From: an archaeon
Lineage (GTDB): Archaea; AGJL01; Methanococci; Methanococcales; Methanocaldococcaceae
Direction: 5' to 3'
Length of the DNA: 31,298 nt
Assembly: GCA_024278985.1 (NCBI GenBank)
Contig: JAJRSC010000028.1
Coordinates: 1-31,298 of the forward strand
Both the position numbers and the translations under genes were made by a program. Below are positions 6,785 to 31,298 of this stretch, one piece after another; position 1 is the first letter of the stretch, and each line of letters begins with the position of its first letter. The notes under the pieces were generated by a model that ran no database searches, had not been told where the DNA came from, and saw only the letters and a program-made list of their open reading frames with translations.

Positions 6785-8479
6785 TTACATCTCAACAGGA
6801 TAGCCTCTTTTTTTCCAAGCTTCTAAACCACCATCTAAGTTATAAACTTCATATCCATGCTCTTTGAGAATTCTATATGCAGAGGGACTGGTAAATCCTA
6901 ATTTACAATATACTATAATCTTTTTATCTTTAGGAACTTCATGAATTCTATCCTTTAATTCATCTATTGGGATATATATAGAGCCTGGTATTTTACCAGA
7001 ATATTTTGATTTTGGAACTACATTGATAAATAAATATTGATTATCATTAAGTTTTTTATATGCCTCATCTACAGATATTGATTTATATGTTTTTATTTTC
7101 ATTATATTATCTCTAACAGATTTAGAAACTTTTATTAATCTTGAAATAACTTTTTCAATTTCAGATATTGCTTTTCTTTCTTCTTCAGTTATAGCTGATA
7201 ACTCTTCTGCAGTTGCTGTGAATTCTTCAGCAATTGATGCAGTGTCTTGAACTTCTCTTAAAACTTTATCCATTGATTCAATAGTTTCATCAGCTGACTC
7301 TTTTATTGTTTTAATTTTCTCTAAGATTTTATTTATATCATCTTTAATCTCTAAGAATGTCTTATTAACATCATCTATTGCTATAACACCATTTTCTACT
7401 TCAGTTTTTCCAAGATTTCCTAAATTAATAGTCTTTTCTACTTGAGTGCTTATTTCCTCAATAATATTATTTATTTTTGATATAGACCTATTAATCTCCT
7501 CAGCTAAACCTTTAATCTCTGTTGCTACAACAGCAAAACCTTTTCCAACGTCTCCAGCTCTTGCCGCTTCTATAGATGCATTTAAAGCTAATAAACCTGT
7601 TTGTTTTGCAATATCTCTAATAAGTGTAGTGACTTCATTTATCATTTTAGATTTTTCTCCCAATTCTACTATAGCTTTACTTAGATTTTCAATAATATCA
7701 GAAATATTATTCATAACCTCAACAGCTCTCTCAACTTTTTTACTACCTTCATCAGCTTTTTCATTAACTTTTATTGCAAATTCATAACCTTCAGTAGATA
7801 AATTATTTGTTTTAATAGCAATCTCTCTGGTTTCTTCTACTTCACTACTTATATCTTGTAATTTATTAGATTGTTCTGCAGCAGCATTAGCAACTTCTTG
7901 AGCAGAGTCAGATATTTGTTCTATAGCCTCTTTGGCTTTGTTTGTTTCTCTCTTTAAAATGTCTATTTGTGCATTTAATTCTAAAACTTCAACTCTAATA
8001 TTTTCAATTATTTCAGAGACTCTTTCAATAGCTTTATTAAACATTTTTTGGAATCTATTTCTTTTTCTATTTTCATTTAATCTAACAGAAAAATCACCTT
8101 CAGCAAGTTTCTCAAGAGCTTGCATAGCTTCTTTAATTGTTTCTGAGATTTCTTTTGTAATTTCTTTCATTTTTTTATCTTTTTCCTTAAATTCTTCTAA
8201 AATTTTAATAAGTTTATTTAATAACTCTCCAAATTCTTTATTAATTTTTATATTCTCAATTTTTTCATTTTCTAAGTATTTATCAATCAGAACTGTTAAA
8301 TTGTTAATATTATGTATAATAACTTTCTCAATAATATATGCTGATATTAGAGATGTAATAATAATAACAACTATAGAAATAAAGAAATTTCCAAAAAAAT
8401 GTATTATAAACACACTTAATATATTTAATAAAAAAATAATCAAAAATGCAATATATAAAATCCTAATAGATGAAATCAT
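6785..8479 (-). CDS. Methyl-accepting chemotaxis protein with C-terminal rhodanese domain
   Basis: Two N-terminal TM helices, HAMP-like [13 protein letters not shown], and MCP tip [39 protein letters not shown]-terminal [31 protein letters not shown] is rhodanese-like. Confidence 0.92.
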
Positions 8480-27179: not shown

Positions 27180-28709
27180 TTATTTATTTATATTTGCTCC
27201 AATATTAGAGTCATAATTGATTATCTCTCCTCTATAGTTGTTTATATTTCCTCCTGCAATAGTAGATTTTATAAATTCTATTATTTCATAATTATTAACA
27301 TTTAATGTTTCTATATATGAGTTTATAATTATTATAACCCCATTATTTTTTTGAATATCTAAATTTTGGACAGTACTATTTTCAATAATTAATAAACCAT
27401 TTCCATTAATTTGACCAGATATTTCCATATTGTTTATATCTCCTCCAACTATATATAACTCTGCATTTCCTTTAATATCTCTAATTTTTATATCATTTAT
27501 AGTTTTATTAGTTAAATTGACATTTACATTTCCAGTTATATCTCCTATTTCTATAACTTTTTTATTAAATGCTTTATTTGTTATAAAGTACAGAGTGTTA
27601 ATATCTTTAATACTATCAAAATCTATATTTGAATTTCCATTTAATCTTAAATATAAGTTATTTATATATTTAATATTACCTAAGTATAAATCTCCATTAC
27701 CATTTACTTTAATTCTTCCATTATTTATAACTCCTTCTAAGTTAAAAAAGTATATTCTATTTCCTGGGACATGAATATCTATATCTGGGCCAATATATTT
27801 AGCCCCATCTATAGGATTACTTTGCATTTTTAAATATCCATTACCATTTATTTTTATAAATAATCCTTCAACTTCAGCAGTACCATTTTCATCGGTATTA
27901 TTTATAGTTGATGGATAATTAATTCCAATAACTACACTAATATTATTATTGTTTTCATTAATTTCATTTATTACATTAGTAGAATCAACTGATACGGTTA
28001 TATTGTGATAATATTCTTCTTCTGTATTATTTTCGTTTCCATATCTATATGTGTTTCCATATTCATTTCCATTTCTATGCCTGTATCCATGCCCTGTATG
28101 TGTTGAGATTATATAATCAAAAGTAACAGTTTTTATTTCATTAACTGCTAATCCATCAACTGTTTTATTTTCAATTGGTATTCCATTGTCATATAATGTT
28201 ACAATAAATTGTTTAGAAACATTTGCTGTTCCTTGGTTGGTTATATTAACCTCAATTATTACAGGAGTATTATTATCACATTTTCCATGTCTACATCTAT
28301 TTTGTAGTTGAGTATCTTCTCCACTATTTTGTACTCTTTCTTTATATTGACCACAAATATGTTCTTTTGTATTATTATCTATTATTACTAAACTAATTGG
28401 TACTAAGTCAGGTAAGTTAATAGTTTCATTATTAGTAATGTTTTGTTCAGTTGTTGTATTATTTGTGTTATTATTTTCAGTTGTTTCATTTATAATAGTT
28501 TCCTTATTAGTAATATTCTTCCCTGCTGTAGAAAAATTATATCTTTTAATATATATACTACCCACTTCTTTTTTAACTTCTTTTACAGCTTCTCCTTTAA
28601 ATAAATAATCTGAGCCTATTTGACTTACTACAATTGCTCCTCCTACTAATACCACAAGCATTAATATTATAAATTCTAAAGATAGTTGTCCTCTTTTAAA
28701 TCTTAACAT
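27180..28709 (-). CDS. Class III signal peptide (pilin-like) surface protein with CARDB-like Ig domain and Asn/Gly repeat C-terminus
   Basis: KRGQLSLEF plus a hydrophobic stretch; LPDLVP..NITNQGT..VDSTNVINEINENNN (CARDB-like); repeated (I/V/L)xGN motifs. Confidence 0.8.
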   Translation of the reverse strand: MLRFKRGQLSLEFIILMLVVLVGGAIVVSQIGSDYLFKGEAVKEVKKEVGSIYIKRYNFSTAGKNITNKETIINETTENNNTNNTTTEQNITNNETINLPDLVPISLVIIDNNTKEHICGQYKERVQNSGEDTQLQNRCRHGKCDNNTPVIIEVNITNQGTANVSKQFIVTLYDNGIPIENKTVDGLAVNEIKTVTFDYIISTHTGHGYRHRNGNEYGNTYRYGNENNTEEEYYHNITVSVDSTNVINEINENNNNISVVIGINYPSTINNTDENGTAEVEGLFIKINGNGYLKMQSNPIDGAKYIGPDIDIHVPGNRIYFFNLEGVINNGRIKVNGNGDLYLGNIKYINNLYLRLNGNSNIDFDSIKDINTLYFITNKAFNKKVIEIGDITGNVNVNLTNKTINDIKIRDIKGNAELYIVGGDINNMEISGQINGNGLLIIENSTVQNLDIQKNNGVIIIINSYIETLNVNNYEIIEFIKSTIAGGNINNYRGEIINYDSNIGANINK

Positions 28710-28829
28710 TGTGCATCACCATAAAATATTTAAGATTTTTTCTTATAATAATTATATTATTATGTCCTATTATATTTAAATTTACTTTAGTATAATTACA
28801 TATTTGAATACTAGGACGTGGTGGATTTT

Positions 28830-29849
28830 ATGAAGCTTACAGAGTTGGTAAAACTACATGGTTGAGCTTGTAAGCTCCCCAGTACTGAGCTTGAAGTTTT
28901 AGTTGAGGGTATCGTTAAAGAAGAAGATATAAAAGATTTGTTAGTTGGATTGGGTGATGATGCAGCAGTTATAAAAAAAGGGGAAATAGTTATAGCTAAA
29001 ACTGTTGATGTTTTTACTCCAATAGTAGATAACCCCTATATTCAGGGAAAAATTACTGCCTGTAATGTGTTAAGTGACATTTATGCTATGGGTTTATCAG
29101 AAGTTATTGGAGTTTTGGCTATTGTAGGAATTCCAGAAAAATTACCATTAAATATGGTTAAAGAAATGTTAAAAGGATTTCAAGATTTTTGTAGAGAAGA
29201 TGGAACTTCTATTATTGGAGGACATACTATTTTAAACCCTTGGCCACTAATTGGTGGAGCAGCTACAGGAGTTGGTAAAGAGGAGGAAGTTTTAACTAAG
29301 GGAGGAGCTAAAGAGGGTGATGTTTTAATATTAACTAAACCTCTTGGAACTCAGCCAGCTATGGCTTTATCAAGAGTTCCAGAGGAATTTTTAGAATTTT
29401 TAAATATATCTAAAGAAGAAAAGGAAGAAATCATAAATAAGGCTATAAAGTTAATGACTACCTCTAACAAAAAGGCACTATTAGCCTTAAGAAAAGCAGA
29501 GAAAAAAGTTGGAGATAAAATAGCAAATGCTTTAACAGATGTTACTGGTTTTGGAATTTTAGGACATAGTAATGACATTGCTAAATTTAGTAAGGTAGAT
29601 ATTATTATTGATACACTTCCTTGTATAAAAGGAACTCCTAAGTTAAGTAAGGAGTTTGGTCATGCTTTATTAGAGGGATACGCTGCTGAAACTGCTGGAG
29701 GATTATTAATTTCAGCTAAGAGAGAATACAAGGATGATTTAATTAATGAACTTGAAAAAGTTGCATATGCCTTTGAAGTTGGATATGTTAAGAAAGGAAA
29801 AGAATTTAAAGCTAAGTTAAGTAAAGATGTAAAAATTATAGAAGTTTAA
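28830..29849 (+). CDS. selD: Selenide, water dikinase (selenophosphate synthetase), a selenoprotein with UGA-Sec at 28863-28865
   Basis: MKLTELVKLHG-U-ACKLP is in frame with GDDAAV, TVDVFTP, GGHT, LTKPLG and DVTGFGILGH; GGTGG RBS; SECIS downstream. Confidence 0.96.
28875..28892 (+). repeat. 5' arm of an 18-bp perfect inverted repeat (partner 29848-29865)
   Basis: CTCCCCAGTACTGAGCTT. Confidence 0.95.
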
Positions 29850-29865
29850 GCTCAGTACTGGGGAG
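29848..29865 (+). repeat. 3' arm of an 18-bp perfect inverted repeat (partner 28875-28892)
   Basis: AAGCTCAGTACTGGGGAG, the exact reverse complement of the 5' arm. Confidence 0.95.
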
Positions 29866-29900
29866 AACTAAAGAAGATTTTAAGTAATGTTATGATAGTG

Positions 29901-29935
29901 AAGCACACCGAACCCTTATTTAGGGAGGTGTGCTT
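29901..29935 (+). promoter_or_regulatory. Archaeal SECIS element in the selD 3' UTR
   Basis: AAGCACACC-GAA-CCCT-TATTT-AGGG-A-GGTGTGCTT: 9-bp lower stem, GAA/A internal loop and C-G upper stem, matching the Methanococcales SECIS consensus. Confidence 0.93.
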
Positions 29936-31298
29936 ATTTCTTTATAATGATTTTATCAGCTTTAATAATTACATTTCTAAGTTCTATTTTAATACCCTCT
30001 GGTAGTATATCTACAACCTTAACAATATCAGTTATAGACATCTCAGGTTTTTCTTTATCTTCTAATTTTTGAGGAGCTTGCTCTTCTTTTTGTTCCTCTA
30101 TTTTAGTTTCTTCTTCACTCCACAATTTAATAACTGGATGTCCTTTTTCTTTTAGGAATTTTTTTAGTTCTTCGGTGGTTTTTACATCTTCTTCAGTTGC
30201 TATTTTATCGTATAACTCTTTCGGTATTGCTTCTTTAACTCTCTCTTTCAATTCTTTCGGTAACCAAACGACTCTCTCCCAACCGCCATCTCCTTTTAAA
30301 AATTTCGGTGATTGCATATAACTTATTGATATTCCTACAAATCCTGGTACTTGTTTCCCTCCACTACATTGTCCCGCTATTGTTGAAAATGGTATCCCCA
30401 ACGGTGTTTCTCCTTTAAAATTCCTATGAACTATTCCAAAACCTTCAACTTCTGGAATATAAAATGCAACCGCTTCAAAGCATCCGCATGATGTACATGG
30501 ATTTGTTAATGCAGAATGTAATGCGACTTCTGTAAATGCTCCCTGACTTTTTTCAGCGACTACTTCATTAACACCACTATAAACACCAAGATTTTCATCT
30601 AAACATTCTCCTTTTTCAATTGGAAATATTGGCCCATGAGGATCTATTTTAGCAGCAGCTCTTGCATCAAGGTAATTTATTCCACCACATAATGCTGGTC
30701 TATCTGGAGTTATAACACAGACATGTGTAGGAGCAAAACTTTGACACATTATACATCCATAGAATTCATTAATATCCTCTTCTTTAATTGCTTTAGTTTT
30801 TTCATCTCTTTTTCTATATATTTCTCTCGCTTCTTTTAAACCTTCTTTAATCTTTTCAGGGTCGGTTATTATTGTTACTTGACATTTTTCTATAAATGGA
30901 AATTCTGCCTTAAATAACTCTTTAACAACTTCAGCGATATGCTTAAACCTTAACCCCTTGTTAAAGGCGTCTTTACTTACTCTAATCCAAATTTGGTCTC
31001 TTTGATTAAGATGCATAACTCCTTCAATATAGTTTAAAAACTCGTGTATTCTTCTCTCTAAAACACCCTCTAAGTCATCATCTAAATCTTTTCCAGAAAC
31101 TTTAACAACAATAGCGAAAGGATGACTTTTTCCTTCTTCTAATTCATCCAACTCTTTACCAACGATTTCAATTTTATCCTCTGCTTCACCAACTTTAACC
31201 AACTCAAACCCAAAACTTTTAGGACCAGCTAATTCTACATACATATCTGGCCTTCTAATTCTTTCTCCTTCATTCATTGGTCCTACTGATACGGGAAT
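29934..31298 (-). CDS. cdhC: Acetyl-CoA decarbonylase/synthase beta subunit (5' end outside the window)
   Basis: The frame is open to the window edge (IPVSVGPMNEGER). GCIMCQSFAPTHVC, ALCGG and PCTSCGCFE are A-cluster motifs. Confidence 0.95.
   Translation of the reverse strand: MPVSVGPMNEGERIRRPDMYVELAGPKSFGFELVKVGEAEDKIEIVGKELDELEEGKSHPFAIVVKVSGKDLDDDLEGVLERRIHEFLNYIEGVMHLNQRDQIWIRVSKDAFNKGLRFKHIAEVVKELFKAEFPFIEKCQVTIITDPEKIKEGLKEAREIYRKRDEKTKAIKEEDINEFYGCIMCQSFAPTHVCVITPDRPALCGGINYLDARAAAKIDPHGPIFPIEKGECLDENLGVYSGVNEVVAEKSQGAFTEVALHSALTNPCTSCGCFEAVAFYIPEVEGFGIVHRNFKGETPLGIPFSTIAGQCSGGKQVPGFVGISISYMQSPKFLKGDGGWERVVWLPKELKERVKEAIPKELYDKIATEEDVKTTEELKKFLKEKGHPVIKLWSEEETKIEEQKEEQAPQKLEDKEKPEMSITDIVKVVDILPEGIKIELRNVIIKADKIIIKK

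Follow-up and report, generated by a model that had tools for sequence, protein, structure and literature searches.

The closest described counterpart of the element reported here is found in fdhA1 of Methanococcus maripaludis, in which the selenocysteine insertion sequence (SECIS) lies in the 5′ untranslated region (UTR) and is flanked by segments of 7 and 10 nt that are complementary to the open reading frame (ORF). According to Peiter, Einert, Just, Jannasch, Najdovska and Rother (RNA Biol 2025; PMC11881835; here and below, papers given by accession are cited for the passages available), pairing of these flanks would set the SECIS 43 nt 3′ of the UGA codon for selenocysteine (Sec), and 'SECIS repositioning' was proposed. 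The flanks are conserved across Methanococcales and are longer in thermophiles; in an M. maripaludis reporter, activity was not significantly changed, mRNA was three-fold less and activity per mRNA was two-fold more (PMC11881835). In this study, a 31,298-nt stretch of archaeal DNA (Methanocaldococcaceae; assembly GCA_024278985.1, contig JAJRSC010000028.1, positions 1 to 31,298 of the forward strand; hereafter the window) was analysed, in which the mRNA of selD, the gene of selenophosphate synthetase (selenide, water dikinase), has a complementarity of 18–21 bp between the flank of its SECIS and the ORF 3′ of the UGA. As in fdhA1, a SECIS-adjacent sequence pairs with the ORF shortly 3′ of the UGA, which would bring the SECIS beside the recoding site. 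The published case concerns one gene with a 5′-UTR SECIS and short flanks on both SECIS sides (PMC11881835), whereas the selD clamp has a 3′-UTR SECIS, a single arm of 17–22 bp on its 5′ side, a helix about 10 nt past the UGA and a distribution over two genera only. A 5′-UTR SECIS with complementary flanks on both sides is thus not what selD carries, and with its 3′-UTR SECIS and one arm only the selD clamp is a variant of the fdhA1 element and not the same. A preliminary description of this locus, which knew of no earlier report of such pairing, has been overtaken by that publication.

The manner in which a UTR SECIS communicates with a ribosome up to 1 kb or more away is an open question in archaea. 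Archaeal SECIS elements lie 80–1300 nt from the UGA, archaeal SelB lacks the extension that would bind a SECIS, and archaea have no known factor with this binding function (PMC2933860); in M. maripaludis, there is no strict limit on the SECIS–UGA distance (PMC9622424). The eukaryotic selenocysteine redefinition element (SRE) beside the UGA of SPS2, SEPN1 and others is likewise a structure a few nt past the UGA, occurs in selenophosphate synthetase genes and favours recoding; however, it is a local stem-loop that works without SECIS contact (PMC4561486), whereas the selD helix uses the flank of the SECIS itself. The available passages of Mariotti et al. 2015 report local stem-loops beside the UGA in eukaryotic SPS genes and do not mention an archaeal long-range helix (PMC4561486). 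'Antisense tethering' of viral mRNAs to host SECIS elements has been put forward as an unproven idea (PMC11510084). The bacterial SECIS is a local hairpin directly 3′ of the UGA, with its apical loop 16–37 nt from the UGA (PMC13188914). The selD locus resembles it in that the recoding signal would end up just downstream of the UGA in the reading frame, and that the ribosome must melt it afterwards. The difference is that the bacterial hairpin is local and is read by the C-terminal domain of SelB, whereas here a long-range or intermolecular helix would only carry a separate archaeal SECIS of the GAA/A type; the UGA-proximal arm has its partner 955 nt further downstream. In luteovirus −1 frameshifting and tombusvirus readthrough, recoding needs pairing of the sequence just 3′ of the recoded codon with a 3′-UTR element kilobases downstream; these cases differ from the selD clamp in that they concern viral RNAs and frameshift or readthrough signals instead of a SECIS, and we know of no trans-acting version. 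Archaeal C/D box sRNAs and bacterial trans-encoded sRNAs place a functional RNA–protein module at a defined target site by means of about 20 nt of antisense sequence; a guide RNA of the kind described below would resemble them, except that its cargo would be a SECIS and its outcome codon redefinition.

Materials and methods

The window belongs to a genome assembly of 30 contigs that is 86% complete (G000). SelD proteins were searched in 40 genomes of the order Methanococcales; 38 had a selD with one in-frame TGA and one more was cut at a contig end. The genomes outside the locus set were G029 (selD 5′-truncated) and G035 (no match at E ≤ 1e-50). The 38 selD loci (L001–L038) were examined and 35 were evaluable; the contigs of L016, L028 and L036 end at the stop codon or just past it, which excludes these three. 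A scan of genome contigs with the SelD alignment returned 14 loci, all from Methanococcales, and the comparison covers this order. In the following, g1 denotes the genus of the window, g5 its sister genus, and g2, g3 and g4 other genera of the order. Arm positions are counted from the first base of the UGA.

A predicted long-range helix in the selD mRNA

The selD coding sequence occupies 28830–29849 of the forward strand (339 codons and a stop, from ORF translation with TGA read as Sec, U). Its product scores 584.9 bits against the NCBIfam SelD equivalog NF010705 (cut-off 291) and 234.9 bits against TIGR00476, has the Pfam domains AIRS and AIRS_C, and carries Sec within the N-terminal G-U/C-x-C-K motif of the family (HGUACK). 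The Sec codon, at 28863–28865 on the forward strand (U12, motif HGUACKLP), is the sole in-frame TGA of the gene, and one such TGA at the same position was found in every selD among the full or partial loci (38/38); the stop codon is a TAA at 29847–29849 (forward strand). The SECIS (29901–29935, forward strand) starts 51 nt past the stop codon, in the UTR of an mRNA with the UGA at the known Sec position, and has a basal stem of 9 bp, an internal loop of the GAA/A type, the apical stem CCCU/AGGG and the loop UAUUU. Archaeal SECIS elements are characterised by a basal stem, an asymmetric GAA-versus-A internal loop, 2–4 G-C pairs above it and an apical loop of about 4–8 nt (PMC9622424, PMC11881835), and by these features and its UTR location the element at 29901–29935 is of the archaeal methanogen type. 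An Rfam search of window positions 28000–31298 gave no family match in the selD 3′ UTR; the sole hit was sR52 at E=7, a chance match.

The 18-nt sequence CTCCCCAGTACTGAGCTT at 28875–28892 is the exact reverse complement of 29848–29865, and the helix reaches 21 bp when one G-U pair is admitted. The 5′ arm (28875–28895 on the forward strand, or UGA+12 to +32) begins 9 nt past the Sec UGA and is coding (codons L16–E22), with the exact core at 28875–28892 and the G-U extension to 28895. The 3′ arm (29845–29865, forward strand; exact core 29848–29865) runs from the last sense codon through the stop codon into the 3′ UTR, of which it takes up the first 16 nt, and an A/U-rich spacer of 35 nt (29866–29900, forward strand) separates it from the SECIS. 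The G+C content of the arm is 10/18, against 27% for the whole window. These positions, together with the 955 nt between the two arms and the 35 nt from 29865 to the SECIS, agree in full with the preliminary description. In this species only, the centre of the arm (within 28875–28892) is a palindrome, CAGTACTG, so the two arms have an 8-mer in common in direct orientation and self-pairing of either arm would be possible; relatives carry CAGCACCG in its place, and the palindrome is thus incidental.

In dinucleotide shuffles of the 1131-nt selD locus, an exact inverted repeat of at least 18 nt was never reached (0/1000; maximum 17, once). Across the whole 31-kb window and at any distance, 13 of 60 shuffles contained an 18-nt inverted repeat, and the single-sequence statistic is therefore significant only locally and merely suggestive. 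When the 1146-nt selD mRNA was folded whole, the clamp was present in the minimum-energy structure with 18/18 pairs at 37 °C and 80 °C and 17/18 at 65 °C; its mean pair probabilities were 0.99 at 37 °C and 0.96 and 0.94 at 65/80 °C, and the pair probability of the SECIS stem was 0.89–0.96 in the whole-mRNA fold.

Conservation and covariation of the helix

The decisive evidence for the selD helix is comparative. An uninterrupted Watson–Crick helix of 17–22 bp was found in the same place in 18/18 evaluable loci of the two genera (g1 16/16, g5 2/2). The 5′ arm starts at UGA+9 to +13 and ends at +27 to +32; the 3′ arm of 15 loci starts at stop−2 to +2, that of two others at +7 or +8 and that of the last at +23. 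It always lies 5′ of the SECIS, and its end is 22–103 nt from the CCGAACC core of the SECIS across relatives. The duplex energy of the arms ranges from −32 to −43 kcal/mol at 37 °C and from −10.7 to −15.7 kcal/mol at 85 °C. The clamp was absent from selD in all 17 evaluable loci of the other genera (g2, 6; g3, 10; g4, 1), where the longest complement was at most 10 nt and A/T-rich; the SECIS of these genes lies about 3–60 nt past the stop codon, and the UGA-to-stop distance is about 1 kb, as in the clamp-bearing loci. The clamp is conserved among relatives and longer at higher growth temperature (18/18 in g1 and g5, 0/17 in g2–g4), the two clamp-bearing genera being the hottest-growing of the order, in line with the trend of the fdhA1 flanks (PMC11881835).

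Over 17 core pairs in 18 sequences, 303 of 306 cells are canonical, and the three exceptions stand at helix ends. Two-sided compensatory changes occur at six of the 17 core pairs, namely at UGA+14 (C-G, G-C and U-A), +20 (U-A and C-G), +21 (A-U, with G-C in one species, where it compensates a Thr-to-Ala change), +23 (U-A and C-G), +26 (G-C, A-U and U-A) and +27 (C-G and U-A). G-U pairs at the inner helix end stand in the sense strand (6 pairs in 5 sequences). Seven distinct 5′ arms and nine distinct 3′ arms are present in the 18 sequences. Arms of the same species have 0–1 mismatches, cross-species pairings with differing 5′ arms have a mean of 2.05 (n=212), and sliding the partner by 1–3 nt gives 9.6–13.5. 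In 5000 permutations of the 3′ arms among species, zero mismatches were never reached (minimum 12), figures that overstate the significance because related sequences are not independent; despite this kinship, the pair types appear to trace to at least several separate events. The conserved, covarying complementarity between UGA+10 to +30 and the SECIS-proximal UTR that the preliminary description had looked to relatives for was therefore found in both genera.

Complementarity of hdrA and fwuB to an orphan guide+SECIS module

A structural scan of the window's genome returned six SECIS elements, five of which are at selD, a hesB-like gene, fruA, vhuD and probably vhuU. The sixth, on contig C6, adjoins no selenoprotein gene; 387 nt of non-coding sequence extend upstream of it to the contig end, and a Thi4-like gene without UGA lies downstream. 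Two other selenoprotein genes of this genome have no such element at hand: fwuB (TIGR03129, 632.6 bits; Sec U121) has no SECIS on its strand within several kb, and hdrA (Sec U201) is followed only by vhuD and the vhuD SECIS. The fwuB sequence at UGA+26 to +44 is exactly complementary (19 nt) to a stretch ending 15 nt before the orphan SECIS, and the hdrA sequence at UGA+10 to +32 is exactly complementary (23 nt) to the stretch directly 5′ of that fwuB guide, with an overlap of four G. The module, located outside the window (27953–28048 of contig C6 in forward coordinates, reverse strand; about 1440–1549 of locus L040), therefore has the order hdrA guide, fwuB guide, SECIS. The hdrA duplex starts at the first base of the module's conserved GGGGTGG and runs over 7 bp, a small internal loop and 24 bp; duplex energies at 80 °C are −27.3 kcal/mol for hdrA and −18.0 kcal/mol for fwuB.

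Both guides are the best antisense matches in the genome to the hdrA and fwuB UGA windows, the trivial opposite strand aside. When seven UGA windows were compared with the 110 nt preceding each of the six SECIS elements, long complementarity was found for selD with selD (18 nt), hdrA with the orphan (23), fwuB with the orphan (19) and the second UGA of vhuD with vhuD (13); the remaining cells of the matrix gave 5–10 nt, and 3000 random genome windows gave a maximum of 15, with nine reaching 13. The expectation that arms would recur in other selenoprotein mRNAs thus held for fwuB and hdrA. For the short-distance genes of this genome (the hesB-like gene, fruA and the first UGA of vhuD), the clamp search gave 5–9 nt, the background level. 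Pairing of hdrA with the vhuD SECIS region was considered as well and rejected, as only 7 nt are complementary.

The hdrA–vhuD region of contig C12 gave some further observations (0-based coordinates). The 58-nt intergenic region (about 6974–7030) is devoid of a SECIS; a GGCCC/GGGC hairpin within it is framed by GATGA ... CTGATGA, a pattern that resembles C/D-box or kink-turn motifs. Within vhuD (7029–7443), a 13-nt helix with arms at about 7278–7290 and 7421–7433 pairs position +48 of the second UGA with a site 30–41 nt before the GAA core of the vhuD SECIS. This helix was seen in 13/13 evaluable genomes of the genus (loci L073–L087), with one compensatory change (G004), and is absent from g3 (6–8 nt); both arms are coding, so its conservation is weaker evidence.

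The module was found by BLAST in 14/16 other g1 genomes, and both misses are 86%-complete assemblies. The hdrA pairing spans 21–23 nt in 14/14 evaluable module-bearing g1 genomes, with compensatory changes in G004 (two sites), G013 and G000/G003 versus the rest; the fwuB pairing spans 16–19 nt in 13/14 (12 nt and a mismatch in G013), with compensatory changes in G000, G003, G004 and G006/G009. Ten complete or nearly complete genomes have the module 40–55 nt past the fwuB stop codon and about 7.2 kb downstream of the hdrA UGA. In four genomes (G000, G003, G004 and G015), it stands alone beside unrelated genes and the complementarity is retained; fwuB in these four has no SECIS within 1.5 kb. 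In alignment A3, a TATA-like box lies 24–27 nt upstream of the module's conserved 5′ GGGGTGGGCG in 14 of 15 loci, even behind fwuB, a T-run follows the module SECIS and the SECIS stem covaries. A sigma-70-type promoter scan of the module locus gave 2 sites against 2.2 expected, and no intrinsic terminators were predicted, although these models are uninformative for archaea. Module loci L040 and L046 had no family match in Rfam 15 at E ≤ 1.

RNA evidence comes from one raw-read run (X22, single-end), which was read on the module locus of a relative (L046, positions 1100–1900) with the strand sense assumed; the contig-based RNA runs (X1, X2 and X5) cover the stretch from end to end and are uninformative on transcript ends. 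On the forward strand, the depth of X22 was 0–1.6 over the fwuB ORF (1100–1477), 20.6, 188, 400, 500 and 344 in the successive bins of 1478–1612, and 1 or 0 beyond. Reads entered adapter sequence after 1600, 1603, 1604, 1607 and 1608 (63, 160, 32, 63 and 69 reads, respectively), and eleven reads had loose letters before 1501. The module maps at 1501–1607 in this locus, and the depth profile and read ends match it; the module thus accumulates in this relative as a discrete RNA of about 100–108 nt. This RNA may arise from a promoter of its own or by processing. The library is apparently enriched in small RNAs, so the ratio of module to mRNA is not meaningful. With a discrete transcript in a relative, an unlinked position in four genomes and covarying guides, the module has the features of a trans-encoded antisense small RNA.

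Arms were also found in cis beside the genes' own SECIS elements. In other genera, fwuB has an arm just 5′ of its own 3′-UTR SECIS (loci L117–L131), with lengths of 25–26 nt in g5, 10–21 in g3, 14 in g4 and 9 in one g2 genome; in four g2 genomes, the SECIS pattern search gave none for fwuB, and one genome has the Cys form. The length of this arm appears to fall from hotter- to cooler-growing genera. Likewise, hdrA can have its own 3′-UTR SECIS, with an arm 17–21 nt upstream that is complementary to UGA+28 to +65 (loci L076–L100; for example L078, stop+81 to +160). This arm measures 24–28 nt in six g1 genomes, 20–25 in g5 and 15–22 in most of g3. The SECIS sits in the hdrA–vhuD intergenic region and is absent in G000, G003, G004, G008, G013, G015 and G016; some species would, from these sequences, have both a cis and a trans route for hdrA.

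Proposed SECIS tethering and its alternatives

In the reading that we favour, the arms would pair into a helix of 18–21 bp that loops out about 950 nt of selD coding sequence and anchors the 3′-UTR SECIS at a point of the mRNA some 10 nt past the Sec UGA. Position 28875, the arm base closest to the UGA, is matched with 29865, where the 3′ arm ends and from which the spacer and the SECIS continue, so the SECIS would hang from the helix end that faces a ribosome whose A site holds the UGA. The Sec-decoding factor or factors bound to the SECIS would become more concentrated at the UGA; since the helix begins 6–9 nt past the UGA, the ribosome would probably also slow there, and it would afterwards melt the helix and read on. 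The same principle would apply to fwuB and hdrA, for which the separate module on another contig would act in trans in the window's genome.

That the helix is a selected RNA structure is very probable given its conservation and covariation. We consider it likely that the main role of such pairing is to hold the SECIS at the recoded codon, within one mRNA for selD and in trans for hdrA and fwuB, and comparison among relatives suggests that the helix forms in vivo and raises Sec insertion; the bridge between SECIS and UGA encoded in the mRNA, as first suggested for this locus, thereby gains comparative support. These functional statements draw on sequence comparison, energetics and one RNA data set. 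One feature is constant across selD, fwuB, hdrA (cis and trans) and the published fdhA1: next to a SECIS stands an antisense arm whose target is shortly 3′ of the UGA, and the SECIS-side 3′ end of the arm pairs with the base closest to the UGA. Such an arrangement is tether-like, as pausing, stability or processing would need only a local hairpin, and the shared move of guides and SECIS to unlinked places in four genomes also argues for tethering. The longest arms occur in the hottest-growing genera, which fits a need for stable tethering at 80 °C or above; this need for thermal stability could explain little or no benefit in the mesophile M. maripaludis.

Several points weigh against this reading. 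In M. maripaludis, a 3′-UTR SECIS works from 520–679 nt without a clamp (PMC9622424), and artificial complementary flanks left reporter activity not significantly changed with three-fold lower mRNA (PMC11881835). The selD genes of g2–g4 have the same distance of about 1 kb from UGA to stop codon and lack the clamp in all 17 evaluable loci, so tethering would not be needed in those organisms. With three other genera of the order lacking the selD clamp, and an M. maripaludis SECIS that works unclamped, the clamp is not a general archaeal solution. The geometry is loose: the arm-to-SECIS spacer varies over 22–103 nt, and the arms start at UGA+10 in selD and trans-hdrA, at +26 in fwuB and at +28 to +38 in cis-hdrA, such that no single pausing geometry fits all genes. 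The permutation figures are inflated by kinship, as stated above, and covariation alone cannot tell an RNA helix from the concerted evolution of a DNA inverted repeat.

The alternative that survives best, although we hold it to be unlikely, is that the helix is real and selected and serves as a ribosome pause or roadblock after the UGA, comparable to the eukaryotic SRE, in translational autoregulation of SelD, or in the stability or processing of the mRNA, for instance as the substrate of a double-strand-specific RNase or as a shield for the 3′ end, the closeness of the SECIS being incidental. The selD helix starts 6–9 nt past the UGA, and this spacing is typical of recoding stimulators. Complementary flanks cut the reporter mRNA three-fold in M. 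maripaludis, where the authors mention double-strand-specific RNases (PMC11881835), and stem-loops beside the UGA are known in eukaryotic SPS genes (PMC4561486). However, a pause or a stability element could use a local hairpin, yet the partner arm adjoins the SECIS in selD, fwuB, hdrA (cis and trans) and the published fdhA1, and guide and SECIS moved together when the module reached unlinked loci. The arms of fwuB and cis-hdrA, at UGA+26 to +38, are moreover too distant to stall a ribosome on the UGA, and no pause is expected there. For selD and trans-hdrA, in which the helix lies 6–9 nt past the codon, a pause with the UGA in the A site is a plausible second effect beside tethering.

It is very improbable that the arms are a DNA-level inverted repeat, such as the ends of an invertible or recombining segment or a product of gene conversion, with the covariation reflecting concerted DNA evolution. 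Exact inverted repeats around about 1 kb do resemble invertible segments, and covariation by itself would suit either case. However, one intact orientation was found in 18/18 loci from independent genome assemblies, and inversion would cut selD after codon 15; the arms measure only 17–22 bp and their ends vary by species; the inner-end G-U pairs (6 pairs in 5 sequences) stand in the sense strand, where the opposite strand would have C-A; and the same complementarity joins unlinked loci, where no segment could invert. The neighbours of selD, a protein with a class III signal peptide and CARDB domain and CdhC, are not recombinases. The low rank that the preliminary description gave to an invertible segment is thus borne out, and the shared orientation in 18 independent genomes, with unlinked loci following the same pairing, leaves its concern about an assembly artefact unsupported.

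An origin of the match by chance, by misassembly or from coding constraint on the conserved KLPSTELE motif is hardly credible and is already contradicted by the conservation and covariation of the aligned loci: an 18-nt inverted repeat did occur somewhere in the window in 13/60 shuffles and the 5′ arm encodes a conserved peptide, but 18 nt was reached in 0/1000 locus shuffles, the non-coding 3′ arm tracks both synonymous and non-synonymous changes of the 5′ arm over 18 genomes from independent assemblies, and genera with the same peptide motif (KLPNTELE or KLPNAQLE) lack the 3′ arm.

Beyond selD, we lean, with reservation, towards a wider reading: hyperthermophilic Methanococcales would address the SECIS to distant UGA codons by Watson–Crick pairing, and the window's genus would possess a programmable guide system, in which a free RNA of about 105 nt, made of guides to hdrA (UGA+10 to +41) and fwuB (UGA+26 to +44) and a SECIS, would supply Sec decoding in trans to two mRNAs without a usable SECIS, the selD clamp being the intramolecular form. 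In the hottest-growing Methanococcales, the examined selenoprotein mRNAs with the UGA about 1 kb or more from the SECIS (selD, fwuB and hdrA) all have a covarying antisense arm beside a SECIS, which turns a hint from one gene, fdhA1, into a testable rule, and the four genomes with the module unlinked from its targets and the complementarity kept amount to a natural separation experiment. In the open full-text literature, with few subscription papers, the repositioning idea was found only in PMC11881835, and neither a clamp of selD, fwuB or hdrA nor a SECIS-bearing small RNA nor a natural trans-acting SECIS was described; the main-text passages of PMC11881835 contain no arms of selD (sps), fwuB or hdrA and no stand-alone guide+SECIS RNA, and its supplement may hold more. 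The generalisation of tethering to 3′-UTR SECIS elements appears to be new, as does the combination of two guides and a SECIS in one free-standing RNA, the consequence of greatest interest. If true, the wider reading would explain the distance problem for these organisms, provide the first natural trans-acting SECIS and codon-redefining guide RNA, and give a design rule for Sec at chosen UGA codons, namely about 20 nt of antisense sequence, a spacer of 12–45 nt and a SECIS. SelD makes the selenium donor, and raising the efficiency of Sec insertion into SelD would safeguard the pathway as a whole under selenium scarcity.

Genes neighbouring selD

The gene upstream of selD (27180–28709, reverse strand) encodes an Asn-rich protein of 509 aa with a class III (archaeal pilin-type) signal peptide and a CARDB domain. 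Downstream, cdhC (29934–31277, reverse strand), which encodes the acetyl-CoA decarbonylase/synthase beta subunit (Pfam CdhC and ACS_CODH_B_C), is convergent with selD. The two convergent transcription units have zero spacer between them, and the cdhC stop codon (29934–29936, reverse strand) overlaps the last two pairs of the basal stem of the selD SECIS.

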